Positions 9,700 through 57,500 of a stretch of 64,000 nucleotides of DNA are shown here, piece by piece. Both the position numbers and the translations under genes were made by a program. Every line of letters begins with the position of its first letter. Position 1 is the stretch's first letter. The DNA is from Spirochaetia bacterium (GTDB lineage: Bacteria; Spirochaetota; Spirochaetia; CADAEX01), in the NCBI GenBank assembly GCA_963662265.2, contig CAXXHA010000015.1, positions 13,653-77,652 of the forward strand, read 5' to 3'. The notes under the pieces are model-generated. The model searched no databases. It was not told where the DNA came from and saw nothing but the letters and a program-made list of their open reading frames with translations.

Positions 9700-9771
9700 T
9701 ATTCAGCATTATTATCTTTGAAACACCTGACTACTGTTCTGCAGTATTCAGATGAAATATTTAAAAGTTAT

Positions 9772-9803
9772 TGAACTGCCCCTTTCCAGGGGCAGTTCTT
9801 TTT
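9772..9803 (+). terminator. Terminator of the hyd operon
   Basis: GAACTGCCCCT-TTCC-AGGGGCAGTTC followed by Ts. Confidence 0.8.
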
Positions 9804-9888
9804 TGAAAAAACATATAAATGATGTGTGTTCTTAATAACATATTTTTATCTTTGTTAAATCATTAAATTAAATTATACTTAAGGCCAT

Positions 9889-12102
9889 ATGGAACTGTTT
9901 TCTTTATCTCAGAACAGCGAATCAACTCCGTTGGCCGCAAGGATGCGCCCTGAAACTCTTGATGATTTTATAGGGCAGGAACATATAGTCGGAAAAGGAA
10001 GACTCTTAAGAAGAGCAATACAGGCTGACCAGCTCTCATCAGTAATATTTTACGGCCCTCCCGGAACTGGTAAAACAACACTTGCAAGAATTATTGCAAA
10101 CACGACAAAAAGCTCGTTTATCACTATCAATGCAGTACTCTCTGGTGTCAAGGAAATCAGGGAAGCGATTATTGCAGCCAAGAAGAAACTGGAACTTTAT
10201 CAGCAGAAGACTATTCTGTTTGTAGATGAAGTCCACAGATGGAACAAGGCACAGCAGGACGCTCTTCTTCCATGGGTGGAAAACGGTACATTCATACTGA
10301 TCGGGGCAACAACAGAGAATCCTTTCTTTGAAGTTAACTCAGCACTTGTAAGCCGGAGCAGGATATTTCAGCTGCTCCCTCTTTCAGAAGCGGAACTTCT
10401 GAAAGCAGCTAAAATGACACTGGAAGACAGGGAAAGAGGATACGGTAAATATAACATAGAATTTGAAGAAGGCGCCCTTGAACACATAGCAGAAATTGCC
10501 AACGGCGATGCAAGAAGCCTTCTCAATGCACTAGAACTTTCAGTAGAAACAACACCTGAAAAATTCCCCCCCCCTGAGGGAGAAAAAATATTCATATCAA
10601 TAGAGACTGCCGAAGAAAGCATACAGAAAAAAGCAGTTCTTTATGACAAGGAGGGGGATTACCACTACGACACAATAAGTGCGTTTATAAAATCAATAAG
10701 AGGATCAGATCCTGATGCGGCGCTGTACTGGATGGCAAGAATGATTGACGCGGGGGAAGATCCCAAATTTCTATTCAGGAGGATGCTGATCTCTGCAGCT
10801 GAAGATATCGGGATGGCTGATCCCAACGCTCTTCCTTTGGTAAATTCCGCAGCACAGGCATTTGAAAGAATTGGAATGCCTGAGGGGAATTTCTTCCTGT
10901 CTCAGGCAGCTATCTATCTTGCAACTGCCAAAAAATCAAATACAACTCTTGCTTTCTTTGATGCTCTTCAGTCAGTGAGAAACGAGAAAAACGGGGAAGT
11001 TCCCGATGACCTGAAAGATGCTTCACGCGACAAGCACAGTTTCGGACACGGGCAGGGGTACCTCTATCCACATGCATACAAAGACCACTGGGTTGCCCAG
11101 CAGTACCTTCCCGACACCCTGAAAGGACGGGTATTTTACCAGCCTGGTGAAACAGGTTATGAAAAAGAGATAAAATCAGATATTGAAAGAAAAAGAGAAG
11201 TCCAGCTTGAAGCCCATCTTGAGCGGGGAGATGACAGCCAGATTCTCACTTTCACCCCTCCGGATAAAAGAAAGGATGAATGGCTAAAAAGAACAGCAGA
11301 TAACAGAAACCTGATACTGACATCAATAAGAGACAGGATTTTCAGAAAAAGCCTGATAAACAGGCACGGAAGAGTGCTTGTTGCGGGAAAAGACAGGGGG
11401 CTCCTCCTGTGGGAGGCACTCAGAAAAGCACCTGAGGGGGGCGTATGGACAGTAATCAGCGATAAGGAGGAGGTAGACTTCATAAACAGCTACCCCACCC
11501 CTCTACCGGATATGGAAAAACCAATTATAATTCCAGGAAGTATAGAAACACTTTCTACTGATGACAGCAACATTGTCCCCTTTGATACAATAGTAGGAAG
11601 AAATATCATCAGAACAGGTTCCGATGCGGAATATATATTCAGAAGCATTTATTCTCTTCTCGACAGAAACGGAATGTTCTCAATTGCAGATGTACTCCCT
11701 TCAAGAGCAACAAGGCTTTCCGAACTGATAAATACAAAATCTCTTACAGGGGAAGATGCAGAAACTATCAGAACAGCTGAAAACACGATTTATGAAAAAA
11801 ACAGGAAACATGGCCTTCTTGAAAGCAATGATGTTTTTAAAATGCTGGAAAAGACCGGTTTTTCAGAAACAGGGCTCAAGGAAAAGGAATATACAGAAAA
11901 CAGAATCATAACATCAAAAAATATAGAACGGTGGCTCGACCTGGAAGATACAGGCAGTTACGGTTCACAAATAAAAAAACTTATTCCGGAAGAATTATAC
12001 AGCAGGATTGCAGATATATTTTATCATGAACTTGCAGACAGGGAAGTAAAATGGAGAACAGTCTACCTCTTTCTTTGGGGTTTTAAAAAGATGAGTTCTT
12101 GA
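9889..12102 (+). CDS. rarA: Replication-associated recombination protein A (MgsA/RarA) with a C-terminal extension
   Basis: PLAARMRP, GPPGTGKTT, FVDEVHRWNKAQQDALLP, ATTENP, SAFIKSIRGSDPDAALYW; about 280 extra C-terminal residues. Confidence 0.9.
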   Translation: MELFSLSQNSESTPLAARMRPETLDDFIGQEHIVGKGRLLRRAIQADQLSSVIFYGPPGTGKTTLARIIANTTKSSFITINAVLSGVKEIREAIIAAKKKLELYQQKTILFVDEVHRWNKAQQDALLPWVENGTFILIGATTENPFFEVNSALVSRSRIFQLLPLSEAELLKAAKMTLEDRERGYGKYNIEFEEGALEHIAEIANGDARSLLNALELSVETTPEKFPPPEGEKIFISIETAEESIQKKAVLYDKEGDYHYDTISAFIKSIRGSDPDAALYWMARMIDAGEDPKFLFRRMLISAAEDIGMADPNALPLVNSAAQAFERIGMPEGNFFLSQAAIYLATAKKSNTTLAFFDALQSVRNEKNGEVPDDLKDASRDKHSFGHGQGYLYPHAYKDHWVAQQYLPDTLKGRVFYQPGETGYEKEIKSDIERKREVQLEAHLERGDDSQILTFTPPDKRKDEWLKRTADNRNLILTSIRDRIFRKSLINRHGRVLVAGKDRGLLLWEALRKAPEGGVWTVISDKEEVDFINSYPTPLPDMEKPIIIPGSIETLSTDDSNIVPFDTIVGRNIIRTGSDAEYIFRSIYSLLDRNGMFSIADVLPSRATRLSELINTKSLTGEDAETIRTAENTIYEKNRKHGLLESNDVFKMLEKTGFSETGLKEKEYTENRIITSKNIERWLDLEDTGSYGSQIKKLIPEELYSRIADIFYHELADREVKWRTVYLFLWGFKKMSS

Positions 12103-12127
12103 CAAATATTATGATTTACTACATATT
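12099..12127 (+). promoter_or_regulatory. Putative sigma70 promoter of the tRNA cluster
   Basis: TTGACA-17 nt-CATATT. Confidence 0.5.
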
Positions 12128-12176
12128 ACTATTACTCACGGAACAGGAGTTTTAAGCATTCAGGTTCTGTATTCAT

Positions 12177-12249
12177 GGTGGATATAGTTCAATGGTAGAG
12201 CACCAGATTGTGGTTCTGGTTGTTGCGGGTTCGAGTCCCGTTATCCACC
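12177..12249 (+). tRNA. tRNA-His(GTG)
   Basis: Encoded G-1, acceptor GTGGATA/TATCCAC, anticodon arm CCAGA-TTGTGGT-TCTGG. Confidence 0.95.
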
Positions 12250-12259
12250 CTTTACTAAT

Positions 12260-12315
<56 letters not shown>

Positions 12316-12333
<18 letters not shown>

Positions 12334-12495
12334 AAAACATCCAGTTTTCATTTTCAGACAGGATTCGATACGGAACTGTCGCCGAGCGATAGCGAGGAAA
12401 AGTGTAGAGGATGTTCACGCCAGACAGTGAAGTCGGCCTGTAATGAGATGACACGATGTCATCGATTGAAAGGCGAATCCTGCCGGGCGTAAAAA
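12316..12495 (+). repeat. tRNA-linked repeat: 22-bp direct repeat of the tRNA-Arg 3' end flanking a 122-nt inverted-repeat-bounded element
   Basis: CGAATCCTGCCGGGCGTAAAAA at 12316 and 12474; AGGATTCG (12360) is the reverse complement of CGAATCCT (12474-12481). Confidence 0.85.
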
Positions 12496-12643
12496 ATCAG
12501 GCATTACTTTTTTCAAGTCCCAATACTTGAAACAACTGCAAATAATGCTTGTTTTAATCACTCCATGACAGATATCCTGTCGGGGGTACAACTTGAAAAT
12601 TATTATATTTTGTATTAAAACAGGATAATAATTTTTCAATATT

Positions 12644-12716
12644 GGGCCGTTAGCTCAGCTGGGAGAGCAGCAGACTCTTAATCTGCGGGTCGAAGGTTCG
12701 AACCCTTCACGGCTCA
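12644..12716 (+). tRNA. tRNA-Lys(CTT)
   Basis: GGGCCGT/ACGGCTC acceptor, GCAGA-CTCTTAA-TCTGC anticodon arm. Confidence 0.95.
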
Positions 12717-12764
12717 CTTTATTTTTGGAAAGTTATTGACTAACTTTTTGAAATAATATACATT

Positions 12765-12846
12765 GCGAGAGTGGTGAAATTGGCAGACACGCCAGACTTA
12801 GGATCTGGTGCCGCAAGGCGTAAGGGTTCAAGTCCCTTCTCTCGCA
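12765..12846 (+). tRNA. tRNA-Leu(TAG)
   Basis: GCGAGAG/CTCTCGC acceptor, CCAGA-CTTAGGA-TCTGG, long variable arm GCCGCAAGGC. Confidence 0.95.
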
Positions 12847-12878
12847 TTAGCAGAGAAGAACACTGCAAATTAAAACCA

Positions 12879-12950
12879 GCGGGAGTAGCTCAGTGGTAGA
12901 GCTCCACCTTGCCAAGGTGGATGTCGCGAGTTCAAATCTCGTCTCCCGCT
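12879..12950 (+). tRNA. tRNA-Gly(GCC)
   Basis: GCGGGAG/CTCCCGC acceptor, CCACC-TTGCCAA-GGTGG. Confidence 0.95.
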
Positions 12951-12954
12951 CATT

Positions 12955-12985
12955 AAAAGCGATCCAAAACGGATCGCTTTTTTTA
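12955..12985 (+). terminator. Terminator after the tRNA cluster
   Basis: AAAAGCGATCC-AAAAC-GGATCGCTTTT followed by Ts. Confidence 0.8.
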
Positions 12986-13268
12986 TATTAAAATTGCCTT
13001 TTTTTTGAAGTATAACTGCAGATTATGGTATATACAAAAAATAAAGGTTTTGGTATTGTAAAGCCTGTTCATTGTTAGTTTTGTTAAAACATTTTTAGGG
13101 ATTTGTTTTATGACTGCAGATTAATTTCAATAATCTGTCATATGATCATGCTGTAATCAAATCCCATACAGGGCACCTGTCACCATGTATATAATTATTT
13201 TTTCCTCTGACAGGAAAATGCATAGTTTTCAAGGGTGCCGATAAATCAAATATCTAAAGAGGAAAACC

Positions 13269-14627
13269 GTGGTTGCTAACAAAGAGATTAAATCACTCGA
13301 AAACTCAATAGTAGAATTAACTGTAACTATTGAAAAAGACGCTGTAAAAAAAGAATATGACGAACTTCTGAAAAAATACTCAAAAACAGCGCATATCAAA
13401 GGCTTCAGAAAGGGTAAAGTTCCGGCAGCAGTACTTGAAAGAAAATACGGAGAAGGACTTGTAACAGAATCAGGATTCAACCTGATTGAAAAAAGCCTTG
13501 ATGAAGTTTTAAAAGATGTTGAAAAGAAGCCTCTTCCATACTCACAGCCTGCACTGAAAGATGAAGAAAACCTTAAAATTTCACTTGATGAAGACCTTGT
13601 CTATACAGTTTCATATGAAACCTTCCCTGAAGTAAAACTCGGCGAATACAAGGGCTTTGATATCGAAATTCCTGAAGTAAAACTTGCCGCAGAAGATGAA
13701 AAAAGAGAACTCAAACGATACCAGGACCAGAACGCTGTTGTCAGCGAAAAAAGAGGCGGAAAAGTTGCCAAAGACAATGTTGTCACAATCAACTATGCAG
13801 AACTTGATGAAAATGACAATGTAATTGAAGATACAAAACGGGAAGACTTTACTTTCACAGTTGGAACAGGTTACAACTACTACAAACTTGATGACGATAT
13901 AATCGGCATGAAGAAAGAAGAAGAAAAAGTAATCGAAAAAGAATTTGCCGATGATTTCGAATACAAAGAACTTGCAGGCAAAAAAATAAAACTCCAGGTA
14001 ACAGTAACATCTGTAAAATCAAAGAAACTTCCCGATCTTGATGATGAACTTGCACAGGATATCAGTGAAAAATACAAAACTCTTGATGACCTGAAAAAAG
14101 ATATCAAGGAAAGACAGGAAGGAATGATTGAAAACAAGCTCAAAGCTGTTAAACAGGAAAAAATGCTTGAAAAAATCATAGAAAACAGCGAAGTAGATCC
14201 TCCTGCTGCAATGATCAATGCGGAACTCGACAACCAGTGGAATAACTTCCTCTACCAGTTCGGCGGAGATGAAAACAAAGTACTTGAAATCCTTACAATG
14301 CAGAACAAGACAAAAGAGGACATGCTTGCTGAATGGAGACCTTTCGCTGAAAAAACTGTAAAAGGACAGCTCCTTATCAGCAAAATCGGGGAAGAGGAAA
14401 AAGTCGAAGCTACAGATGAAGAACTTGAAGAAGAAATCAAGTCTCAGTCTGCACAGAGCGGCATGAGCGAGGAAGACTTCAGAAACTACATAGAACAGAA
14501 TCAGATGAAAGAATATGTAAGACTCAGCCTCAAAGAGAGAAAAACTTACGACTTACTCATGGAAAACTGCAAGTTTAAGAAAGGGGAAAAAATAAAATTC
14601 CTTGATTTTATTCAGACAAACTATTAA
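13269..14627 (+). CDS. tig: Trigger factor
   Basis: IKGFRKGKVP ribosome-binding motif; upstream of clpP-clpX. Confidence 0.95.
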   Translation: MVANKEIKSLENSIVELTVTIEKDAVKKEYDELLKKYSKTAHIKGFRKGKVPAAVLERKYGEGLVTESGFNLIEKSLDEVLKDVEKKPLPYSQPALKDEENLKISLDEDLVYTVSYETFPEVKLGEYKGFDIEIPEVKLAAEDEKRELKRYQDQNAVVSEKRGGKVAKDNVVTINYAELDENDNVIEDTKREDFTFTVGTGYNYYKLDDDIIGMKKEEEKVIEKEFADDFEYKELAGKKIKLQVTVTSVKSKKLPDLDDELAQDISEKYKTLDDLKKDIKERQEGMIENKLKAVKQEKMLEKIIENSEVDPPAAMINAELDNQWNNFLYQFGGDENKVLEILTMQNKTKEDMLAEWRPFAEKTVKGQLLISKIGEEEKVEATDEELEEEIKSQSAQSGMSEEDFRNYIEQNQMKEYVRLSLKERKTYDLLMENCKFKKGEKIKFLDFIQTNY

Positions 14628-45876: not shown

Positions 45877-47046
45877 TTAAAGTTCGTTGATTTCCTCATG
45901 AACAAAAATTCTTCTCTTTTCAAGTTCTTCAAAAACATCTTTAGGATCAAATGCATCTTCAGGAATAACTGCACCTGTTCCAACAATTTTGTTTTTAGCC
46001 ATAAGAATTGCCGCAACACCCATTGGTGTTCCCACATTTCTTACATATGCTTTAAGACCTTCCCATCCCGGTTCAGAACCATCACTTGAAGGATGTGTAT
46101 GTGTAAGAACGTGTTCCACTTTCTTTCCGTTTCTTTCACCCACTACCTGGATGTGGAGAGAATATCCGTAGAGGTCAGTATTTGTTCCCTCTTCAGACTG
46201 CATAAGGTATGCACCGATTGCATCCATAATTCCCATTTCCTGTCCCTTGAAAGTAAACTTGTCATTTCTCATGAATCCCCATTCATAAAGAGCTTTAACA
46301 AGTCTCATGTTTTTCGGTGGCCATGTTCCTCTGACTTCGATAAGTTTTACACCTTTGTCTTTAAGGTACTTCTGACCTGTTACTGTTTCTGAGTGAGGGA
46401 TAATCCACTGAGGATTTTCTCCGTAGGGTTCAGGAAGCTTGATCATTCTTTCCCTTGCAAAGGGGGGAACCTGTTTGAACTCACCATCTTCAAATACAAC
46501 TCTTCCCGGAAGATTAGGATCATATTCATAAGAAGTAGTTTCAAAAATAGCAGGTGAATAAGCTATCGGTCTGAAAGCTCCATGGCTTACCCTTACAGTA
46601 TCAACTTTTTCACACTGGTCAGCGCCGTGTTTAAGCATCATATCTGTGAGGCCTGGAGTCATTCCGAAACCGGGAACCATGATTCTTCCGTTTTCCTTGA
46701 AAATCTTGTCATATTTATATTCTTCGCCGAAACCGTTGAGGTTTACACCTGAGCAGCCTGCATTAGCAATACAATCTGTAGTTCTGTCATTAAGCTTGAT
46801 TGTTGTACCGTCCATAACAACATCATAACCTTTAAGCTTCTTGATTGTATCTTCTCTGTCCATTACATCGATTTTTACAAAATCAACTCTCTCGTCATCG
46901 AGTTCTGCTATAAGTGCTCTAGCAGCTTCTTCGTTGTATTCACCGATTGTAATTCTATCAAATACAGAAGCATCTGTATATTCAACAACATCTCTCACTG
47001 CCATGCTGCAAATTCTTCCAGCTCCAGCCAAACACATAAGTTTCAT
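45877..47046 (-). CDS. Saccharopine dehydrogenase/lysine 6-dehydrogenase-like NAD(P)-dependent oxidoreductase
   Basis: N-terminal Rossmann LAGAGRI, GFGMTPGLT, HSET, C-terminal G-x-x-x-PE. Confidence 0.82.
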   Translation of the reverse strand: MKLMCLAGAGRICSMAVRDVVEYTDASVFDRITIGEYNEEAARALIAELDDERVDFVKIDVMDREDTIKKLKGYDVVMDGTTIKLNDRTTDCIANAGCSGVNLNGFGEEYKYDKIFKENGRIMVPGFGMTPGLTDMMLKHGADQCEKVDTVRVSHGAFRPIAYSPAIFETTSYEYDPNLPGRVVFEDGEFKQVPPFARERMIKLPEPYGENPQWIIPHSETVTGQKYLKDKGVKLIEVRGTWPPKNMRLVKALYEWGFMRNDKFTFKGQEMGIMDAIGAYLMQSEEGTNTDLYGYSLHIQVVGERNGKKVEHVLTHTHPSSDGSEPGWEGLKAYVRNVGTPMGVAAILMAKNKIVGTGAVIPEDAFDPKDVFEELEKRRIFVHEEINEL

Positions 47047-47112
47047 AGTCTTAAGTCTCCTTAACTATAATTAATTTTTATACAAACAATAAGTTTGTTT
47101 AATTACTCCTTG

Positions 47113-47141
47113 ATTATCTACCCAATAAAGGGAGGTGTCAA
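47113..47141 (-). promoter_or_regulatory. Putative sigma70 promoter of the dehydrogenase
   Basis: TTGACA-17 nt-GATAAT on the minus strand. Confidence 0.6.
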
Positions 47142-47402
47142 TAATATTTCTTAATATTTTCCATCATTTTTTCTTATAGTTAAGGAAACGAGTATTATTA
47201 ATTATTATAAAGCTGATGAAAGAATCTTATTCTTAAGATAATACGGAAAGTATTCCAGATTGTCAGACAGACAGTACGCTATGAGGTAAAATTACAGTAA
47301 AGATAAAAGCAAAAAAAAAGTATCTGCCGCTCGGGCAGATACCGCAAAGAAAACCAGTTTAAAGTTTTTATCAGGATTCTTCTTAATAAATTATTTCCTG
47401 AA

Positions 47403-48317
47403 CTACACAGAATCAGTCAAACTGTTCATATATTCTGTAGCCCAGCTGTTAACTACTGCAACAAATTCGGCAATCGTCTTTGTGAAGTATTTTTCCTTGT
47501 GATAGGTTATATAAAATTTCCTGATCAGGTTGGGATCTTCAATATCTATAGAAACAAGATCCCCTTTTTTTATATCATCAATTACAGCATTTCTTGATAT
47601 CAGGGTTATGCCGAGTCCTTTTTTAACAAGCGCCTTTATAGCGACATTGTTGGAAAAATCACATACAACATTGAACCCTATATTATGCCTCTTCTTGAAA
47701 TCACTTATAACTTTTCTTGATCCGCATCCGACTTCAGGCATGATAATAGGCAGATTATTGAGTTCGGAAGGTTCCATTCTGCTGTTTTTTGCAATTGGAT
47801 GGTCGGGTGATGTAACAAGAACAATTTCCTCCCGCAGTATTTCCTTGACAACTATCTTCGGGTGTGCAATTTCCTTGGATATAAATCCCAAGTCATTTGT
47901 AAGTTTTGAAATACTTTCAATTACATAATTATCAGTAAGATTCAGGGCTGTAACAAAAATATCGGGAAATTTTCTGTTGTATTCAATTACAATCTCAGGA
48001 AGATAGAATGCTCCGAAAGTTTCTGTAGTGACAATTGATATCTTGCCGCTTTTCTGCTGCTGGAAATCCCGTATACTTTCCTCCACCTGTGTTTCAAGTT
48101 CAAATATTTTCTCGGCAAGCGAATACAGTGTTTCCCCTGCATCTGTGAGAATAATTTTTTTCCCGACACGGTTAAACAGTGTAAGATCGTATGTGGATTG
48201 AAGTTCCTGTATCTGCCTTGTCACGGCAGGCTGTGTTATACACAGCTCGTCAGCTGCTTTTGTATAACTTCTGAATTTAGCAGTATAATAAAATGTCTTT
48301 AAGTGATATAGGTTCAT
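47403..48317 (-). CDS. LysR family transcriptional regulator (CysL-like)
   Basis: SYTKAADELCITQPAVTRQIQELQ...LFNR...LTDAG. Confidence 0.93.
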   Translation of the reverse strand: MNLYHLKTFYYTAKFRSYTKAADELCITQPAVTRQIQELQSTYDLTLFNRVGKKIILTDAGETLYSLAEKIFELETQVEESIRDFQQQKSGKISIVTTETFGAFYLPEIVIEYNRKFPDIFVTALNLTDNYVIESISKLTNDLGFISKEIAHPKIVVKEILREEIVLVTSPDHPIAKNSRMEPSELNNLPIIMPEVGCGSRKVISDFKKRHNIGFNVVCDFSNNVAIKALVKKGLGITLISRNAVIDDIKKGDLVSIDIEDPNLIRKFYITYHKEKYFTKTIAEFVAVVNSWATEYMNSLTDSV

Positions 48318-48560
48318 AACTATTTGTATTATATTTTATAAAAAAATATTATGCAACAAACTTATTTATCCACAGAGAGATAGCCTGCCTGAAATTATCT
48401 GCTAAAAGGCGGAAATTGCAGATTTCAGATACATGACTCAAGGAATTTAGAAATAATGTGTTTATAAAGCTTATAAAAGCTGCATGTTATTCATACAAAC
48501 AACATGCAGCAGTAAATTTTTACTCAATTTAATCAATAAGGGCAACAAATTTATTACTTA

Positions 48561-49932
48561 TCAATACCCTTTGGGCCGGGGCCATCCTGTTCCGATAAAC
48601 TTTCTGAAATCAACAGATTTGTACCGGTGTTTAATAAACCACAGGGATGCAAGAGAGTAAAACAGAAGAGCGCCTATAATATTTATCCAGTATCCAAAAT
48701 ACATACCCACAACTGTGGCAAGGGTCAGGATAATCAGGATTATCGAGGGGACAGGGTGTGCAGGAGAGACATATCCCCGTTTTATATAGTTGCCGGGATA
48801 CATTTTCCTGAATTTAATCATCATCACAGCTGTAAAAAGATAAACTATAAGGGCTGAAAAGATTGAAAAAGTTACAACCTGGTCAAGCATACCTGTAAAC
48901 CCGAAAGCCATCGATATAGGGAGAAGAAAAATAATTGCCCTGTATGGTGTTTTATATTTCGGATGAAGAACTCCGAACTGTGAAGGAAGGAGTGTATCCC
49001 TGGACATTGAAAACCATGCACGGCTTGCATCGTTTATGCATCCGTTCGCACTTGCGAGGCAGGCAAAAAGTGTTCCCGCGAATAAGGCTGCGATTACAAC
49101 AGGAATACCAGTTGCAAGGGCTGCATCAAAAAGTGGATAGACAGATTTACCGAGGATTTCCGCATCAACCATACCTGAACAGACAAACCATGTAAGAGAT
49201 GCGCCTATTAGAAGGGTTATAAGCCCTGTAATTGCTCCAAGAGGAAGAGACCTGCCTGTTGATCGGCACTCTTCAGCAGCAAGAGCTGTCCCTTCAATAC
49301 CCAGATAAAACCATATCCCGAACTGGAGGGCCCCGAGAATACCTATCCAGCCATACGGCAGCCCGTTTGTCATCTCCTTCAAACGAAGAAGTGAATTACC
49401 AGGAGAATAAAACCGGGTACTGAAAAGGAGTATGAGTATTGTAACAAAAGCAATCCCTGTTATTACAATATTCAGTGTAAGTGTTGCATAAGCTCCCCTG
49501 TAATTAAGATATGTGAGAAACACAAGGCTCAGTACAATATAGGGCAGAGCCTGAATATCAGGGTGAATTGATTCCAGTACAGCTCCCACTACAAGAGCAT
49601 CTGCAGCTTCCAGCATTGCATATTCAAAAACAAGCATCAGTCCTATATTGAATGCAGCAACAGGACCGAGAAAATATTTTGCCATGGCATATTGTCCCCC
49701 TGCCTCAGGTTATAACTGACCCCATTTCTGTATTAATCATGATCAGGGTTATATACAGAAGCCCTATAATCCAGCATGCAATCACGGCACCCAGAGAGCC
49801 CCCTTTTGCAACAGCAAAATTCCAGCCCATAAACTCGCCGACAAGTACAATACCCACACCGAGTGCCCAGACATGGGCAGGCCCAAGCACTTTTGACATT
49901 GAATGCGTTTTCTCATCTTTAATTTCACTCAT
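48561..49932 (-). pseudogene. APC-family amine permease (ethanolamine/methylamine permease-like) with a +1 frameshift (or sequencing error)
   Basis: LGPAHVWALGVGIVLVGEFMGWN...TEMGSVI continues as PEAGGQYAMAKYFLGP if one T at 49710-49711 is removed; WFYLGIEG...AAEE. Confidence 0.85.
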
Positions 49933-50049
49933 TATTATCACCACCGTTTTTCATTCTTCCGTACTCAACTCTTATAAAATCAATCAAGATGAGAGCAGTA
50001 AAATATGCGCTCAATACCCATGCCGCAAAATTCATTGTTTTAAAGATAT

Positions 50050-50313
50050 TCATTTTTCCGATTCTCCGTCACTGTACCTTTCTTCTATCATGCTCTTAAG
50101 TTCCCTGTCAGAACTCCTGAGAACATAAATCATATACATAAACAGCCCCCCGACTGTGATTATGAATGTCACAGGATTAAAACTGTAATCAATGCCGCTT
50201 CCTTCGCCCCCCACAAGAAGCCCGCCCTGCAGCAGCATTGTCGAAAGCAGAGTTGCAAAACACAAAAGCATCACAAACATGACATCAAAAATCAGCATTA
50301 TCTTATTTTTCAT
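50050..50313 (-). CDS. Small two-TM membrane protein
   Basis: Two hydrophobic helices; overlaps the upstream gene's stop (ATGA). Confidence 0.75.
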   Translation of the reverse strand: MKNKIMLIFDVMFVMLLCFATLLSTMLLQGGLLVGGEGSGIDYSFNPVTFIITVGGLFMYMIYVLRSSDRELKSMIEERYSDGESEK

Positions 50314-50591
50314 ATCTGTGCAGCCTTTTCCTTTTTTGTAATATACAGAAGTTCATCTTCATAAAGTTCTTTTCTGTTTTTCTTGAGATGGAAAATCAAC
50401 GCTGCAGAAGTTACTGTAAGTGCTACAAGAACAGAAACAGCAGAGACGGCAGAAACAACAGTGAATATCCGGCTGGTGCTTAACTCAATGACTCTGAAAA
50501 GAATCATTATTATTGTTACCCACACAGCTGCAACAGATATAAATACTGCAATATTATCCATTGAATGAAGTAACCTGATTTTGTTTTCCAT
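50310..50591 (-). CDS. Small two-TM membrane protein
   Basis: Two hydrophobic helices, then H-x4-R-x2-LY-x-DE tail; RBS GAAGGGG. Confidence 0.75.
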   Translation of the reverse strand: MENKIRLLHSMDNIAVFISVAAVWVTIIMILFRVIELSTSRIFTVVSAVSAVSVLVALTVTSAALIFHLKKNRKELYEDELLYITKKEKAAQI

Positions 50592-50619
50592 TAACCCCTT
50601 CCTTTTATTATTTTTTATT

Positions 50620-50674
50620 ATCGTTATGATAACTATTTTTTATAGGAATATATCACAGATCAGATATCTGTCAA
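50620..50674 (-). promoter_or_regulatory. Promoter and palindromic operator of the permease module
   Basis: TTGACA-16 nt-TATATT (50674-50647); near-perfect palindrome ATCGTTATGATAACTAT (50620-50636). Confidence 0.55.
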
Positions 50675-51076
50675 TAAGTTTTACTTATTATTTCTATCAT
50701 TTTTTTTAATGTTAAAGCTGGTTATATATAACAAAAACTGCTCAATAAAAATATAAGACGGGAAAACAATTGTTGAAAATTATGCAGAAATATATTCCCG
50801 GTTATCAGGAAAACAATTATAGCAGGAGAAAAGACCAGATCAGTTATATGACTAGGGGCCATATCTGCAGTCATCGAAACAGCAGATATGGCAAAGAAGT
50901 CTTTTGTTTTTAACAATCACATACATGTTATGCAGCTTATTTTGTTCGGCAAAGCTATAAAGCTGTCAGAACAGTGCAGGATTATATAAGACCAGATTTT
51001 ATTCAGGTCTTTATAAACTGACCGGGTATTTGGAGGAATACCCGCATCAGCTTTTTTCCTTTTTTTATAGATATAA

Positions 51077-52078
51077 TTACTGAATTAAACCAGCTTCTCT
51101 GTAGTATTTTTCAGCTCCGGCATGAAGAGGAAGAGCAAAAGATTCATTTCCGCCAAGAGCATTTTCAAGAGTAATTGCTTTGGTAGCTGATGCTACATTC
51201 TGTACTTCTTCAAGTCCTTCACCGTACATTGCTTTAAGATATTTATAGACAAAATCTTCAGGAACATCTTCGTTGGCAATGATAAATCCGCCAAGATAGA
51301 TAGTTTCAACTTCTTTATCTACACCATTATACATACCTGCAGGAATTGTATATGGACCGTACCATGGGAACTTTTCAATGATTTCTTCTCGTTCCTTACC
51401 CTTGATTTCAAGAATAGTAATAGGAGAAAGAGCAGAAGCTTCAGTAATACTTCCTGAAGGCTGTGCTGTCTGATATCCAATACCTTCAAGCACCTTATCC
51501 TTGAAAGCCATAACTCTTTCATTATGTGAAAGAGGTTTCCATGTCATGTTTTCTGGGCCTGCGCCGTAAACACTGAAGATCTCCATCCAGCAGAATTCAT
51601 CTCCTGAACCTGCAGAACCTGGAGCAAATCCATACTGTGCTCCACCGTTTGTTTCTGTATTATAATCAAACATAGTTTTTACAGGACCGTCTTTTTTTAC
51701 AACAGCACAAACAGCATTCGGATAAAGGTTGGATACATATGTTATGTTTTCATATCTTCCGTCTTCCTTGAACATCTGCTCCCCTCTGTATGCATAGTTA
51801 GCAATATTTGGTTCAGAAAGCCCCATCTGATACTGGTTCTGTCGCATGAGTCTGCAGTTTTCTACACCGCCGCCTGATGACTGTACAGTAACTGTAAGAT
51901 CTTCATATTTCATGGAAACACCTGCAATTCTACAAGCTGTCGGATACCAGGTACCGCCAAGACTTGAACTACCCATAATTGCAGCATAGCGTTTTCCGCC
52001 GCTTTTTTCTCCCTGACCTTCTGCAAAAACAAAACCTGCCAATGCAATCATCAGAAGTAAAACTAAAATCTTTTTCAT
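51077..52078 (-). CDS. TAXI-family TRAP transporter solute-binding protein
   Basis: GSSSLGGTWYP, SSGGGVENC, LYPN, VPEDFVY, PLHAGAEKYYREAG; signal peptide ending FAEGQGE. Confidence 0.9.
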   Translation of the reverse strand: MKKILVLLLMIALAGFVFAEGQGEKSGGKRYAAIMGSSSLGGTWYPTACRIAGVSMKYEDLTVTVQSSGGGVENCRLMRQNQYQMGLSEPNIANYAYRGEQMFKEDGRYENITYVSNLYPNAVCAVVKKDGPVKTMFDYNTETNGGAQYGFAPGSAGSGDEFCWMEIFSVYGAGPENMTWKPLSHNERVMAFKDKVLEGIGYQTAQPSGSITEASALSPITILEIKGKEREEIIEKFPWYGPYTIPAGMYNGVDKEVETIYLGGFIIANEDVPEDFVYKYLKAMYGEGLEEVQNVASATKAITLENALGGNESFALPLHAGAEKYYREAGLIQ

Positions 52079-52260
52079 TCCTCTCTCCTTAAATTTTTTA
52101 GTTTAAATTATCAAGACCAGATAAAACCTGATTTTCTGCTTGCTCAATATTTAATCAGGACATTACAGGTCTGAGTTCAGGAATCGTATTAAAATCTTTC
52201 ATGCTTCACTTCCGATGTGTATAAGTTGTTTTAATGATTCCCATAATTTATTGTAATAAA

Positions 52261-52289
52261 ATTATCCCCCTGAATTTTTTATTTGTCAA
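52261..52289 (-). promoter_or_regulatory. Putative sigma70 promoter of the TAXI gene
   Basis: TTGACA-17 nt-GATAAT on the minus strand. Confidence 0.6.
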
Positions 52290-52350
52290 TCGTTAAATAA
52301 TTAATTTTTATAGGTTACATTATACAGTTTTATCTTCCTTATGTTTGTAT

Positions 52351-52494
52351 ATTTGTACATACATATAAAAGTCGTATAAAATGATATCTGAATAAAATGC
52401 AGGGTAATTATTGATTGTTTTTTCATTCCCCCAAGTAATTATAATAATATTTTTAATAATACATAAAAAAATACATATATTTGTATATACAAAT
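52351..52494. promoter_or_regulatory. Two GntR/HutC-type operator palindromes between the TAXI gene and pbfA
   Basis: ATTTGTATATACAAAT (52479-52494, perfect palindrome) and ATTTGTACATACATAT (52351-52366, 14/16 match); GT-N-TA-N-AC core. Confidence 0.6.
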
Positions 52495-52550
52495 GCATCA
52501 ACCAATGATACGATATCAGTATCAAAATAAATAATGAATCTGGAGGCATT

Positions 52551-53921
52551 ATGTCAGAAAAACTGGACAAAGAGCTGAAACTTGAAGGAGATGTAAACAT
52601 CTCTGAAAAAAGACAGAAATGGCAGGATGAAAATATAGGGGCAGAAACACAGAAACTTCTTGATGAAGATGAAAAGTATTTCCTAAAACAATCGCTTTCA
52701 ACACCATGCCTGAACGGAATGAAATCTGCGAAAGGAGCATGGATAGAAGACCTTGAGGGAAGAAAATATATTGATTTTCATGGAAACAATGTACACCAGG
52801 TAGGATTCGGAAATGAAGATGTTATCAATGCGGTAAAAGAACAGCTTGATGAACTTCCTTTCTGCACAAGGAGATACACAAACTGGAAAGTTGTTGAATT
52901 TGCAAAAAAAATTGCATCCATTACTCCCGGAAATCTTAATAAAATGCTTTTTGCACCAGGCGGAGCTGAAGCAAACTCAATAGCACTGAAACTGGCCAGA
53001 CTTGCGACAGGCCGGCACAAAACAATTTCAATGTGGGATTCTTTTCACGGTGCAGGACTTGATACAATCTCTGTTGGAGGAGAAGCTGTTTTCAGAAAAG
53101 GAATAGGTCCTCTTATGTCAGGAACAGAACATGTTCCGCCGCCAGACATTCACAGAAGATTCATGGATATCGGAAAACCTGAGGAATGGGAAATACTCTG
53201 GGCAAAATATATTGAATATATACTTGAAAAAGAAGGAGATATTGCTGCTGTAATATCTGAACCTATGAGAAGTACACCTTATGTTCCGTCAAAAAAGTAC
53301 TGGCAGATTGTAAGAAAAGCATGTGACAAATACGGAGCTCTTCTGATTTTTGATGAAATTCCCCATGCACTCGGAAGAACAGGCCAGTGGTTTACATGCC
53401 AGAATTTTGATGTTACTCCCGATATCCTTGTAATAGGGAAAGGACTCGGAGGCGGAGTATTCCCGATTGCTGCTGTCATTGCAGACGAAAAACTTGATGT
53501 CGCGGGAAATATTGCACTCGGACACTTCACACATGAAAAAAGCACACTAGGGGCTGCAGCCGGTCTTGCAACAATCAATTATATAGAAAAGAACAACCTT
53601 ATTGAGCATTCAAGAGAGCTTGGAAAATATGCACTTGAAAGAGCAAATGAAATGATGGAAAGACATCAGCTTATCGGGGCTGTAAGAGGTATCGGGCTCT
53701 TTTTAGGCATAGAACTTGTCAAAGACAGGGAAACAAGAGAGCTTGCAATTGAAGAGACAGAAGAGGTTATGTACAGGTCACTTTCAAAAGGTGTAAGTTT
53801 CAAACTCACAATGGGAAATATTCTTACACTCACACCTGCGCTGACCATTACTAAAGAGGAAATGGATTTTGCCCTCAATGCAATTGAAGAATCAATTACA
53901 GAGGTTGAAAACAACATCTAA
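52551..53921 (+). CDS. pbfA: (R)-1-hydroxy-2-aminoethylphosphonate ammonia-lyase-like class III PLP enzyme
   Basis: EGDVN...FLKQSLSTPCL...DFHGNNVHQVG, WDSFHGA, FDEIP, IGKGLGGG (PLP Lys), GHFTHEKS; this N-terminus matches PbfA rather than generic ArgD/GabT. Confidence 0.8.
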   Translation: MSEKLDKELKLEGDVNISEKRQKWQDENIGAETQKLLDEDEKYFLKQSLSTPCLNGMKSAKGAWIEDLEGRKYIDFHGNNVHQVGFGNEDVINAVKEQLDELPFCTRRYTNWKVVEFAKKIASITPGNLNKMLFAPGGAEANSIALKLARLATGRHKTISMWDSFHGAGLDTISVGGEAVFRKGIGPLMSGTEHVPPPDIHRRFMDIGKPEEWEILWAKYIEYILEKEGDIAAVISEPMRSTPYVPSKKYWQIVRKACDKYGALLIFDEIPHALGRTGQWFTCQNFDVTPDILVIGKGLGGGVFPIAAVIADEKLDVAGNIALGHFTHEKSTLGAAAGLATINYIEKNNLIEHSRELGKYALERANEMMERHQLIGAVRGIGLFLGIELVKDRETRELAIEETEEVMYRSLSKGVSFKLTMGNILTLTPALTITKEEMDFALNAIEESITEVENNI

Positions 53922-54127: not shown

Positions 54128-55759
54128 TCACGATCTTTCCCTGTTAAGCAGTATAAGGCTCCCGGCAGGCATTGATGCCACATCATCAAGCGCAAAAGCA
54201 AGTTTTTCCGCATCTGAAAGGAACTGATTCTCTTTATTATCAAGAATCATGTTGAGAAATTCCTCTTTTTCAGGATATCTGTCTATGAGGCGTGGAATAA
54301 TATGACCAAAATAGTACGGTATAACCCTGTCCAGAGGCTGCTGCAGATTATAAGCCATGAATTCATTGACAAGAAGGTAATGATCTTCTGTGTCATAACG
54401 CTTGTATTCAAAAAACAGTTTCCAGAATTCCTTCATTTCAGGTTCAACTTCATCCCAGATTACTTCACATCGTTTTCTGAACTCAGGGGAAGAGAAAAAA
54501 ACTCCGTGATATCCTTCATGCGTTATAAATATTCTGCGAAGATATCCGCTTGATTCTCTTGAAACAGAAAGGATTCCACCGTTTCCAGCAGCATAGACTT
54601 CCCCTTCTTTTTTTATCACATTGTTTTCAAGAAGTATTTTTTCCAGCAGTTCCTCTTCCCGGTTAAGGGGAAAATCAAGCTTTTCTGTTTCATTGAAAAA
54701 TGAAGCAAGATCTGCAGCTTTATAATCATGGGCATTCCAGCCGTGAAGGTTTTCAATTTCCTCATTTGTACGGATAACACCCCTGCTTCCCGGTTTTTCC
54801 ACATAAAAGGCCAGTCTTTTAAACATTTTTGCCTGAAAACTGTAATCAATAGTATCAATAATAAGAAAATCAGGAAAATAGTTCCAGCTGTAAAGCTCAT
54901 ATTCATCATTACGCCAGCTTTCCCTGTCAGCATGCAGAATAAGACCGAATCCGGCCCTTACAGGTAAAAATAGATCATTTTCATATTTACTGCAGAAATC
55001 TGAATTTGCATACAGATTCCTGAGCTGCAGATTACCTTCAGCTGATGATATTTCAACTGATGAAGGTAAAAAACCGAAAAGCCTGCTGTTCAGAACAATA
55101 CTATTTTCACCGTGCAAAGGAAAATAATTATAGGCAATTCTTTCACCGAGCTTTCCAATAAGCACTATTTTTACAGTTTCCCTGATCCGGTTTAAATAAT
55201 CAAAATCAGCAGTAATCTCTGTACACATGCTGCTTCCTGAAAAAACAGAATATTTATAGGTATCCTGCCCGCTCACCTTTTCAAGTAAAACAGTATCACT
55301 TCTAAACAGTTTGCCATTTTCATGTTTCATCCCTGAAAAGAAATCTGAAGAATCAATCATGTCGATTTTTTCAACTGCCGGCAAGTTGTCTGATTTGACT
55401 TTGTTTTCAAGGATAAAACCTTCAATCGAATGCCCTGTCGGGATGCTGAAATACAAGGAACCTGTCTCCCCTTTAACTGCAGAGACATCAAGGACTTTAT
55501 CTTCTTTATCAAGAAGTATTCTGAATGTGAAAGGATTTTCTATTCCGCCAATATCGGCCTTAAACAATGTTTCAGTATCATAAGGGGCCGGCTTGCTGCT
55601 GTTTTTAAATGAATATATAACTGATGAATCTTTTTCAGTCTTATACAGTTTTATTTTTTCACCCTCTTTTGAGAGAAAAACCGGTTTGTCCCCGGCACAG
55701 GAGAGCACTGATAACACACATACCGCAATAAAGAGTCTTTTAAATAAGGTTTTATTCAA
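54128..55759 (-). CDS. Lipoprotein with a C-terminal HExxH motif (putative Zn metallopeptidase)
   Basis: Lipobox VLSC; ITHEGYHG followed by NEFMAY. Confidence 0.65.
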   Translation of the reverse strand: MNKTLFKRLFIAVCVLSVLSCAGDKPVFLSKEGEKIKLYKTEKDSSVIYSFKNSSKPAPYDTETLFKADIGGIENPFTFRILLDKEDKVLDVSAVKGETGSLYFSIPTGHSIEGFILENKVKSDNLPAVEKIDMIDSSDFFSGMKHENGKLFRSDTVLLEKVSGQDTYKYSVFSGSSMCTEITADFDYLNRIRETVKIVLIGKLGERIAYNYFPLHGENSIVLNSRLFGFLPSSVEISSAEGNLQLRNLYANSDFCSKYENDLFLPVRAGFGLILHADRESWRNDEYELYSWNYFPDFLIIDTIDYSFQAKMFKRLAFYVEKPGSRGVIRTNEEIENLHGWNAHDYKAADLASFFNETEKLDFPLNREEELLEKILLENNVIKKEGEVYAAGNGGILSVSRESSGYLRRIFITHEGYHGVFFSSPEFRKRCEVIWDEVEPEMKEFWKLFFEYKRYDTEDHYLLVNEFMAYNLQQPLDRVIPYYFGHIIPRLIDRYPEKEEFLNMILDNKENQFLSDAEKLAFALDDVASMPAGSLILLNRERS

Positions 55760-55764
55760 TTAAG

Positions 55765-57500
55765 TTATTCCCCTGTTTTTTTATAATTACAGTCACCTTC
55801 TGCAACAACAACACAGTTACGCCCTTCTTCTTTTGCCATATAAAGAGCATTATCTGCAGCTGAAGTAAGAGACTCGGCTTTGTTATATTCAGGAAAAGAA
55901 GCTATTCCGCAGCTGAATGTAACATAAAATTCTGAATCTGCCGATGAATGCTTTATTTTTGAAAATCTTTTTCTCACTTCATTCATAACAGTTGCAGCAA
56001 CTTCTTTTTCAGTATTTGTCAGGAGAATACCGAATTCCTCACCGCCATACCTGCCGATGACATCAGTCTTCCTAAGCCTTTCCTGAAGAAGATATGCAAG
56101 ACTTTTCAGGACAGTATCACCGGTGAGATGACCGTATGTATCATTAACCGACTTAAAGTGATCAAGATCAATCATTGCATAGGAAAGCTGATTATCGGTT
56201 CTGTCAGCCCGTATAATTTCACGATACAGGTTGTCGTTGAAATTTGAATGATTTAAAAGCCCGGTCAGCGAATCACGTTCCATCAGATATCTCAAATCAT
56301 TTGAGCGCTGGATTTTGTTTTTTACAAAGTTCAGGAGATAACTGTCATCTATAGATTTATTTAAAAAATCATCTCCTACAATGTTATAATTCGTGAGCAG
56401 TTCCCCCGGACTGTCAAATGAAGAAAGAATAAGAATTGGAATTGATACAAAGTTTGCATTCTGCCTGATCATTGCGGCAAGCTCAAAGCCGTTGCATCCC
56501 GGCATGAAAAGGTCAATCATGATGAGATCAGGTGTACTTTCAATGAGAAGATTAAGAACAGATGATGGAGAAGAGGCTACTGATGTTATCATTCCGTTCT
56601 GCTGAAAAAGATGAGCGTAATATGCTATGGCATCAACATCATCATCAACAATAAGAACATGGTCAGGTTTTTTTATACTGGATTCCTCGAAACAGTATAT
56701 TTTATCAACAAGTTTTACAACATCGAGAGGAAGCTCAAAAAAAGCATCCCCGCCTGCTTTCACTGCTGTTATACGGGTTTGAAAATCACTTTTTGCTGAC
56801 AGATAAATCAGTTTCAGCGGGCTTAATATTCTTTTTATTTCGGTAAATATTTCTATATATTCCGGATTATCGATAACAGAATCTATATCTACGAGTATAA
56901 GGTAGTTTTCTTTTCTTGACGAGCTTCTCCTGGAGTTTACCGTAAGATCATTCAGGTAATTCTTAATTGTATATCCGAAAGAAACAAGCTGATGTCTCGA
57001 TATCATGGAGAATAGTCCCCTTTTTTGTACTGTAAAAGAAGAAGAATATTCTTATCCCAGTCACGGGGGATCTTTCTCAAGGACCTTTACCGTGAATGTA
57101 CAGGAAAATCAGTTACAGAATGACGGGATATTGCTTTTGGATCATCTGGTCTCTTTCAAAAGTAATTCTGATAATCTCGGTCAAGAGAATCCTTTATAAA
57201 TCCCCCGGTCTATCTCCTCATAGACGGAGGCCGTCCCTTCATGTGCATCATGACAGATACATTATCAAGATTTTTGAGAATTTTATCTCATTCCGCTCAT
57301 ATCCGAAAGTTCCAGACAGATCCGGCAAGCTTATGAATATCCATTCTAACAGTCACTGAAAGATTCTCCTCAGTCAAGCGTATTCTCCATGATCAAACGT
57401 ATAGATAATTTTCTTTCTTATGTTGTCGATACCTACGGGCAGATAATCTTTAAAATAGTGTTCTTCCAGTTCTTCGAAATTTTCAAAATTCCTGTCTCAT
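55765..57500 (-). CDS. Hpt-REC-REC-GGDEF diguanylate cyclase response regulator (5' part broken by indels)
   Basis: Intact 55765..57006 has a REC domain (VDDD...DLFMP), RKTD I-site and GGEEF; upstream frames contain the Hpt motif HKLAGS-x-GTFGY; probable ATG at 57500. Confidence 0.8.

Follow-up and report, generated by a model that had tools for sequence, protein, structure and literature searches.

A spirochaete pbfA locus and its candidate place in a dispersed aminophosphonate pathway lacking PhnX

How would a bacterium whose pbfA gene stands apart from its usual partners dispose of the phosphonoacetaldehyde that PbfA forms? In the passages cited here, PbfA turns (R)-1-hydroxy-2-aminoethylphosphonate (R-HAEP) into phosphonoacetaldehyde (PMC12366243), and the clusters of this hydrolytic pathway combine pbfA with phnW-phnX or with phnW-phnY-phnA (Zangelmi et al. 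2021, PMC8154272; Ruffolo et al. 2025, PMC12366243). According to the same passages, pbfA is present in <25% of hydrolytic clusters (PMC12366243) and some strict anaerobes have phnWX-pbfA clusters (Zangelmi et al. 2021, PMC8154272). The gene that raises the question, pbfA1 (52551-53921, plus strand), lies in a 64,000-nucleotide stretch of a Spirochaetia genome, hereafter the window (C15:13653-77652 of assembly G000, which comprises 3.77 Mb in 41 contigs). A first-pass annotation of the window had proposed an aminophosphonate or amine catabolic locus built around pbfA, without phnW or phnX. We examined the locus in its own genome together with 19 further genomes of the same family (20 in all) and an outgroup of 41 genomes drawn from the other families in the class. 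The reading that we favor, with moderate confidence, is that the window holds one arm, the one for HAEP, of an aminophosphonate catabolic system whose genes are distributed over four or more loci, and in which the phosphonoacetaldehyde step is probably coenzyme A (CoA) dependent and of an undescribed kind. The candidate replacement for PhnX is the most interesting part of this system and lies outside the window.

PbfA1 is a clear member of the PbfA family, scoring 682.2 bits on the NCBIfam equivalog model NF049939 (cut-off 525) and 261 bits on PF00202, the class-III pyridoxal phosphate (PLP) fold. Residues K297, presumably the Schiff-base lysine, and D268 are invariant in the PbfA alignment (A1). 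Orthologues at 15 loci of the bacterial family are 79-94% identical to PbfA1, and PbfA proteins from loci with PhnX are 56-64% identical to it. A sequence search of the PDB found no PbfA structure, the top match being a 229-bit aminotransferase. The genome encodes a second PbfA, PbfA2 (C35:235259-236578), which scores 647 bits on NF049939, is 49% identical to PbfA1 and is followed by an orphan gene for a TAXI-family binding protein, TAXI2 (C35:235259-237896 for the pair; locus L016 8182-11909). The PbfA2 gene is divergent from genes for an MBL-fold hydrolase and a TPR-like open reading frame (ORF), both of which are kept beside PbfA2 in G001, G002 and G006. To place the two proteins, we built a tree of 100 rows from PbfA-family ORFs of 380-560 aa with 45% or more identity to PbfA1 or PbfA2, to which six outgroups were added; ORFs outside this length range or with lower identity were excluded. 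In this tree the PbfA family is a single clade (97% support) that includes the proteins of PhnW-PbfA-PhnX operons, with PbfA1 nested inside it. This nesting supports the aminophosphonate role first suggested for the locus, an interpretation that as a whole is supported in part. PbfA1 groups with its Spirochaetia orthologues inside a Thermodesulfobacteriota clade (98%), and PbfA2 falls in a different subclade, whose stem is long (1.29 changes per column, 100% support). Judged from its sequence, PbfA1 is predicted to convert R-HAEP to phosphonoacetaldehyde and ammonia.

The usual partners of PbfA are indeed missing from the surroundings of pbfA1. Neither family models nor tblastn gave a match to phnW, phnX, phnA, phnY, phnJ or PhnS2/U2-like genes on contig C15, in agreement with the first-pass annotation, which had noted no phnW, phnX, phnY/phnA, C-P lyase or ABC phosphonate transporter in the window. 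At the level of the genome, its claim holds for phnX and fails for phnW. PhnX is over the cut-off in none of the 20 family genomes (the best score in G000 is 48.5 bits on TIGR01422 vs 220), and the same is true of PhnA and PhnY; PhnJ was absent from all five genomes checked, G000 included. A PhnX-like HAD protein is confined to G001, G006 and G009, where it reaches 148-159 bits on TIGR03351 against a cut-off of 218.9. In contrast, contig C35 of G000 encodes a PhnW (C35:192930-194009) that scores 409.2 bits on TIGR03301 against a cut-off of 360.8, and PhnW is over this cut-off in 17 of the 20 genomes. PbfA1 therefore belongs to neither a phnWX nor a phnWYA cluster, with phnW elsewhere and no PhnX, PhnA or PhnY over the cut-off in the family.

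A putative link between the window and the distant phnW is a set of binding proteins. The pbfA1 gene is divergent, across an intergenic region (52079-52550), from the gene for TAXI1 (51077-52078, minus strand), a solute-binding protein of the TAXI family of TRAP transporters that has a signal peptide and scores 196.6 bits on TIGR02122 (cut-off 84.35) and 224 bits on PF16868. TAXI1 is an orphan: no fused TRAP permease is encoded in the 485 bases downstream of its gene (50592-51076) or nearby, and the fused TRAP permeases of the genome (TIGR02123) lie on C32, C24, C35, C16 and C3. On C35, phnW stands back to back with the genes for a TAXI binding protein and a fused TRAP permease, with a GntR/PhnF-like regulator upstream, and PhnW adjoins a TAXI gene or TRAP permease in all 19 mapped PhnW-type loci. 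TAXI1 is 53-54% identical to this PhnW-linked TAXI, 47% identical to the PbfA2-linked one and at most 28% identical to other TAXI proteins of G000. Indeed, TAXI1, TAXI2 and the PhnW-linked protein are mutually 47-59% identical and share at most 32% identity with the remaining TAXI proteins of the genome, and only the PhnW-linked member of the three adjoins a permease. We infer that the two orphans use the PhnW-linked TRAP permease. Literature searches, judged by titles and the opening lines of abstracts, found no link between TAXI proteins and phosphonates. Two further arrangements of such genes were seen. In L288 (G001, 9874-13742) and L289 (G009, 6614-10657), a PhnX-like HAD gene is followed by a TAXI and TRAP permease of the same subfamily, an arrangement not found in G000 or G002. 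At C3:89681-92990 of G000, a TAXI binding protein gene and a fused TRAP permease gene are both interrupted by stops or frame changes.

What could take the place of PhnX? Contig C13 of G000 carries a module (C13:30303-35735; L186 6304-11739) of two citryl-CoA-lyase-like (Cit-like) genes, a SauS-like acylating aldehyde dehydrogenase, a HAD protein and a LysR regulator, neighbored by a Nudix gene and a DUF47 and PiT pair. Genes of this kind recur next to pbfA. We took 80 PbfA loci from other genomes and clustered the neighboring proteins: PhnW is found in 20, a LysR of the same type in 14, a citryl-CoA-lyase-like protein in 12, PhnX in 12, a SauS-like dehydrogenase in nine and a TIGR02253-type HAD in eight. 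Across these loci, PhnX (12 loci) and a Cit-like gene or the dehydrogenase (15 loci) never occur together. The exchange is seen among Planctomycetota PbfA proteins separated by branch lengths of 0.03-0.08, where the genes MFS-PhnW-PbfA are followed by PhnX in L151 and by a Cit-like gene in L148. In L164, PhnW, PbfA, two Cit-like genes, the dehydrogenase and the HAD all run in one direction. Moreover, the genes that are scattered in the spirochaete stand together in a Syntrophales locus, L117, where some 14 kb hold a PhnS2/U2/T2-like transporter, the saccharopine-dehydrogenase-fold gene sdh that also occurs in the window, PbfA2, PbfA1, a PhnA-like gene, two HADs, the dehydrogenase and both Cit-like genes; the C13 module is 41-71% identical to the module in L117. 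The first Cit-like gene is present in 17 of the 19 other family genomes, and also in the outsider G047, where it faces a PhnU2/PhnT2-like transporter. A PhnA-like gene of the alkaline-phosphatase family, scoring 170-216 bits (cut-off 407.55), stands beside PbfA in L117 (11361-12452) and in G008:C28:84-1130. Collectively, these data make the C13 module a probable replacement for PhnX.

The same comparisons bear on the history of the system. The neighborhoods of the long-stemmed PbfA2 subclade contain sdh and the Cit-like module, and sdh and the first Cit-like gene of the spirochaete are 59-71% identical to Syntrophales genes. This identity, together with the pattern of the PbfA tree, suggests that the phosphonate toolkit was acquired and later dispersed in the spirochaete genome.

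The C13 proteins themselves hint at the chemistry. The dehydrogenase scores best on the SauS model, at 470 bits (cut-off 600), vs 325-391 bits on acetaldehyde models. Sulfoacetaldehyde, the substrate of SauS, is the sulfonate analogue of phosphonoacetaldehyde, and oxidation to phosphonoacetyl-CoA is therefore proposed. The Cit-like proteins reach a best score of 117 against a cut-off of 212. The first retains residues that match the His and Asp-Pro-Arg motifs found in the true citrate synthase of G000, motifs with catalytic roles in that enzyme, and the second has lost them. Citrate-synthase-family enzymes stabilize the acetyl-CoA enolate, and this enolate would be the leaving group in a C-P cleavage catalyzed by the Cit-like proteins. 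We know of no C-P cleavage of a CoA thioester. The listings returned by literature searches contained nothing relevant on a Cit-like module in a phosphonate context, nothing on phosphonoacetaldehyde with an acylating anaerobic step, and only unrelated work on phosphonoacetaldehyde with citryl-CoA lyase; for phosphonoacetyl-CoA they gave a single biosynthesis study, unrelated as judged by its title and the start of its abstract.

A different division of labor is also conceivable, in which the C13 HAD is a non-orthologous phosphonatase that releases acetaldehyde and phosphate and the dehydrogenase then makes acetyl-CoA, with no phosphonoacetyl-CoA formed. PhnX is itself a HAD enzyme, PhnX is followed by an aldehyde dehydrogenase in L146, L151, L152 and L171, which parallels a HAD with a dehydrogenase, and the HAD gene occurs in eight of the 80 PbfA loci, together with the module. 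This scheme, however, gives no role to two conserved Cit-like genes, the first of which retains its motif counterparts, while the C13 HAD matches TIGR02253 and nucleotidase-type models rather than PhnX models, and the dehydrogenase is closest to SauS. We consider it rather unlikely. We place less weight still on the possibility that the substrate is an amine without a phosphonate group (ethanolamine, aminopropanol, isoserine or beta-alanine, for instance) and that the C13 module takes the corresponding aldehyde, such as malonate semialdehyde or acetaldehyde. The permease near pbfA1 is ethanolamine-permease-like, PhnX, PhnA and PhnY are missing from the family, and acylating aldehyde dehydrogenases commonly use acetaldehyde, all of which would fit. 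Yet PbfA1 is well over the equivalog cut-off and close to PbfA from PhnX loci, the Cit-like module occupies the PhnX position in otherwise matching operons, the neighborhoods of the module include PhnS2/U2/T2-like transporters, PiT/DUF47 and a PhnA-like gene, the dehydrogenase prefers the SauS model to the acetaldehyde ones, and the permease is not conserved in the locus. A non-phosphonate amino alcohol, which the first-pass annotation had kept as an alternative, is thus not favored by the gene contexts and appears improbable.

The enzyme at the far end of the locus, sdh (45877-47046, minus strand; 389 aa), is an NAD(P) oxidoreductase of the saccharopine-dehydrogenase fold, with 38.2 bits on PF03435 (Sacchrp_dh_NADP) and 60.5 bits on PF16653 (Sacchrp_dh_C), both over the cut-offs. 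No NCBIfam model matched it, and by sequence the PDB yielded only 4rl6 (E = 1e-6). In an AlphaFold2 model with a predicted local distance difference test (pLDDT) score of 86, the closest folds found by Foldseek are carboxyspermidine dehydrogenase (template modeling, TM, score ~0.8), followed by L-lysine dehydrogenase and saccharopine reductases, at 15-18% identity. Homologues that are 58-70% identical to sdh occur across Thermodesulfobacteriota, Syntrophaceae, Anaerovoracaceae and Brevibacillus. We examined 80 metagenome loci with sdh homologues, 58 of which have at least five ORFs; a phosphonate marker is present in 44 of the 80, and in 39 of those 58. PhnS2/U2/T2-like transporter genes occur in 35 of the 80; their binding proteins and permeases match PhnS2 and PhnU2 best, under the cut-offs, and a PhnT2 ATPase reaches 481.8 bits (cut-off 457.7). 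Other markers are a PhnX-like HAD with 221.9 bits (cut-off 218.9), a PhnW with 602 bits, PbfA-family genes and PiT/DUF47. In addition, sdh lies directly beside PbfA-family genes in unrelated metagenome contigs (e.g., L208, L209, L251 and L261), as it does in Syntrophales L117. The sdh enzyme would probably widen the substrate range of phosphonate clusters. The first-pass annotation had named a secondary transporter and an NAD(P)-dependent oxidoreductase as parts of the toolkit, and both the TAXI-TRAP system and sdh do recur with phosphonate genes elsewhere. The listings from literature searches held nothing relevant linking the sdh family to aminoethylphosphonate (AEP). A Nudix gene in the window (~2892-3284; C15:16544-16936), ~43 kb from sdh, is 44% identical to a Nudix that recurs next to sdh in 11 of the 80 metagenome loci.

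We also considered that sdh might be of the PbfF or PbfG type. This was rejected: PbfF belongs to PF02826 and PbfG to PF00107, both different Pfam families.

Upstream of sdh lies a gene for a LysR-family regulator (47403-48317, minus strand; PF00126 and PF03466). No NCBIfam model is over its cut-off for this protein; it scores 174.1 against 341.1 on the phn_lysR model TIGR03339, and its top match, another LysR model, is also under the cut-off. Its identity is 46% with the C13-module LysR and 41% with a LysR in a Desulfobacterales pbfA locus.

Taken together, the favored reading would run as follows. TAXI1 would capture an extracellular aminophosphonate, most likely 1-hydroxy-2-aminoethylphosphonate or a close derivative, and pass it to the sole fused TRAP permease of its subfamily, beside phnW on C35. 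PbfA1 would convert HAEP to phosphonoacetaldehyde and ammonia, and sdh, an imine-forming C-N oxidoreductase by fold, may feed a further amine into the phosphonoacetaldehyde pool, either an N-substituted aminophosphonate or AEP by oxidative deamination. The LysR protein would regulate the window unit. Phosphonoacetaldehyde, uncleaved by PhnX, would enter the C13 module, most likely by way of phosphonoacetyl-CoA to acetyl-CoA and phosphate. A broader proposal extends this scheme to the spirochaete family and many uncultured Thermodesulfobacteriota, Planctomycetota and Chloroflexota, all of which would use CoA-dependent C-P cleavage (a SauS-like enzyme forming phosphonoacetyl-CoA and a heteromeric Cit-like pair, with or without the HAD, forming acetyl-CoA and phosphate), TAXI-TRAP importers, and sdh as an NAD(P)-dependent phosphonate breakdown factor. 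We advance it tentatively, as a combination that may well not hold in all its parts.

The remaining genes of the window locus form an operon that appears to be an addition to it. The first-pass annotation placed pbfA, the TAXI gene, the permease, LysR and sdh correctly, as ORF calls and hidden Markov model scans confirm; its two small membrane proteins are in fact three translationally coupled small ORFs on the minus strand. ORF 1 (50310-50591; 93 aa, a membrane protein) is the first gene of the permease operon and has no Pfam family over the cut-off. Its stop is overlapped by the start of ORF 2 (50050-50313; 87 aa, likewise a membrane protein), and ORF 3 (49925-50053; 42 aa) overlaps the ORF 2 stop and the start of the permease. 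In G001, a genome of the same genus, ORF 1 is 62% and ORF 2 78% identical, and ORF 3 has a 42-aa counterpart. The permease (48561-49932, minus strand; PF00324 and PF13520) belongs to the APC superfamily and is ethanolamine-permease-like (EAT-like), and its frame is split by one extra base near 49710. Logan contigs from all four runs examined (two samples from two studies, one sample possibly the source) have one base fewer at this position, and in G001 the orthologous ORF runs unbroken over 456 aa, which makes an assembly error the probable cause of the break. On TIGR00908 (cut-off 381.75), the C-terminal part of the window permease scores 147.7 bits and the intact G001 protein 217.5 bits. Because even the G001 orthologue is below the cut-off, we call the permease EAT-like and do not assign it as an ethanolamine permease. 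The small ORFs and permease were seen only in G000 and G001; they are therefore not part of the core toolkit, to which they had at first been assigned, and the operon would be a lineage-specific addition in the uptake slot.

The indel error in the window raises the possibility that a second break, on C13, is also an assembly error: the PiT-type phosphate permease there is split into two ORFs (L186 12584-14175), adjoining the DUF47 gene. In other phyla, phosphonate clusters repeatedly contain a PiT gene paired with DUF47. On the other side of pbfA, window positions 54128-57006 hold a 543-aa ORF without a Pfam family and a response-regulator-GGDEF gene, on the strand opposite to pbfA; both are kept beside pbfA in genera g1, g2 and g4.

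How well is the locus itself conserved? PbfA is over the cut-off in 15 of the 19 other family genomes and in none of the 41 outgroup genomes, and the block sdh-LysR-TAXI-pbfA is syntenic in three genera, bearing out the expectation that these genes co-occur in other genomes. At the 10 PbfA1 loci of genera g1, g2 and g4, a TAXI gene is adjacent in eight, sdh is present in seven and LysR in six; contig ends truncate the three loci that lack sdh. Between TAXI and LysR, a second TAXI paralogue is found in G009, G003, G006 and G008, and this slot is empty in G002. In the small-genome genus g3, the genomes without PbfA (G004, G014, G016 and G019) have a PhnW-type match, over the cut-off in three and partial in G016, those without PhnW (G007 and G017) have PbfA, and all six have the Cit-like gene. 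In L066 (9983-13621), L067 and L071, all from g3, pbfA starts ~11 bases after ilvB-ilvN (acetolactate synthase), in the same direction.

Several observations weigh against the favored reading. The first concern is whether the window genes form one functional unit. Promoter-like and terminator-like sites, which are no more numerous in the window than in shuffled sequence, fit five separate units, in line with the several transcription units noted at first. Thus, a minus-strand promoter-like site matching the consensus at 11 of 12 positions (52289-52261; a consensus match only) lies upstream of TAXI1, another (11/12; 50674-50647) precedes small ORF 1, a terminator-like site (48510-48479) follows the permease, and sdh has its own promoter-like (47141-47113) and terminator-like (45829-45808) sites. 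Nor did nine upstream regions from the four loci share an operator motif (14-mers, up to two mismatches), and a common operator was rejected, the matches being AT-rich chance ones only. Of the 10 runs found in a search for expression, none is listed as RNA. Conservation is also uneven: the G002 locus lacks TAXI, the G005 locus lacks LysR, and in g3 pbfA stands in another context, after ilvB-ilvN in three of five loci. Beyond the family, 36 of the 80 sdh loci have no phosphonate marker, sdh lies within 7 kb in only one of 76 non-spirochaete PbfA loci, and the Cit-like gene also occurs in G047, where no PbfA or PhnW passes the cut-off. The family genomes, moreover, are kin, so that their co-occurrence pattern comes from one clade and counts as a single event, and the G000 assembly is 90.6% complete. 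Finally, as discussed below, PhnW could serve biosynthesis in some of the genomes.

One alternative built on such observations is that only pbfA1 and TAXI1 work together, that sdh and LysR serve an unrelated lysine or polyamine metabolism, that the permease is unrelated too, and that all are neighbors by descent. Besides the separate units, the markerless sdh loci and the confinement of the permease operon to two genomes, it can draw on the persistence of the neighbor cls beside sdh in the family loci, on the name lysine 6-dehydrogenase given to some sdh homologues by JGI, and on the polyamine and lysine enzymes being the closest folds. Against this stand the direct adjacency of sdh and PbfA-family genes in metagenome contigs and in L117, the PhnS2/U2/T2-like transporters at 35 of 80 sdh loci, and the low identity of sdh to the solved carboxyspermidine and lysine dehydrogenases. 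The neighborhoods of the PbfA and dehydrogenase homologues speak in part for functional unity, through the 44 of 80 phosphonate-type sdh loci, and in part against it, through the single non-spirochaete PbfA locus with sdh nearby. On balance, we judge a unit of pbfA1 and TAXI1 only to be unlikely.

TIGR03301, the model matched by PhnW, spans catabolic PhnW and biosynthetic AepZ. It is thus relevant to ask whether PhnW, PbfA and TAXI might serve the synthesis or recycling of phosphonates that belong to the cell itself, and not the use of those from its surroundings. G001, G002 and G009 do have a phosphoenolpyruvate (PEP) mutase, and PhnW could therefore also serve biosynthesis in these genomes. 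In G001 the mutase is fused to a cytidylyltransferase domain and followed by a phosphonopyruvate decarboxylase; the fusion and decarboxylase, with an ABC transporter, make up a ~6.6-kb island (L292 4596-11194) in which no transaminase was seen. G000, however, has no match to PEP mutase, and the flanks of the island lie 172 bases apart there (C35:116116/116288), so that the syntenic site is contiguous. In addition, G005 and G010 lack PEP mutase yet have PbfA, PhnW and the Cit-like gene, and extracytoplasmic binding proteins indicate uptake. A biosynthetic role in G000 was rejected on the basis of the missing mutase and the intact site, and the phosphonate genes of this genome are best read as catabolic; that the genes exist for the cell's own phosphonates seems very improbable.

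Comparison with described systems reveals that the locus is a variant form of the aminophosphonate pathway. It resembles the hydrolytic AEP/HAEP pathway, as described in the cited passages (PMC8154272, PMC12366243), in having a PbfA orthologue and a PhnW-type transaminase, both expected to funnel into phosphonoacetaldehyde. However, G000 lacks PhnX, PhnA and PhnY, its genes are spread over four loci, uptake would rely on TAXI-TRAP and not on a transporter of the ABC or MFS type, a second, long-branch PbfA is present, and the Cit-like/acylating-dehydrogenase/HAD module takes the PhnX place. Accessory factors described in the cited passages are the FAD oxidoreductases PbfB-D, the PF02826 racemase PbfF and the PF00107 alcohol dehydrogenase PbfG (PMC10590968, PMC12366243, PMC13576164). 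Like these, sdh is a recurrent gene inside phosphonate clusters, but it differs in fold (PF03435 and PF16653), is found mostly in uncultured anaerobe-type lineages and is not named in those passages. With carboxyspermidine dehydrogenase, L-lysine dehydrogenase and saccharopine reductase (PDB 8deb, 8h4z, 3abi and 1ff9), sdh shares the two-domain fold (TM 0.72-0.82) and an N-terminal glycine-rich nucleotide-binding motif, and these relatives imply NAD(P)-linked imine formation or cleavage between an aldehyde and an amine. It is set apart from them by its 15-18% identity, the absence of an NCBIfam match and a phosphonate-type rather than polyamine or lysine neighborhood, and it falls in none of these three characterized subfamilies. 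TAXI1 is a clear member of the TAXI-TRAP family (TIGR02122 and TIGR02123), with a cognate-looking fused permease beside phnW; it departs from the usual arrangement in being an orphan, and a single permease appears to serve three paralogous binding proteins. Similarly, the C13 dehydrogenase is best on the SauS model yet well under its cut-off, and the Cit-like proteins belong to the enolate-stabilizing family of citryl-CoA lyase and citrate synthase but score below the cut-off, with the second protein devoid of the motif residues.

To our knowledge, few routes of C-P cleavage exist: C-P lyase, PhnX, PhnA, PalA and the oxygen-dependent PhnY*/PhnZ. If the favored reading is correct, an energy-conserving, oxygen-independent CoA-thioester route would be an additional type of C-P cleavage, one in which carbon is conserved as a thioester. 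Such a route would account for the use of AEP and hydroxy-AEP by anaerobes equipped with PhnW and PbfA but not with PhnX. The analysis also nominates candidate new players in phosphonate metabolism, namely a TAXI-TRAP phosphonate importer in which several binding proteins would serve one permease, the sdh family and the long-branch PbfA paralogue.

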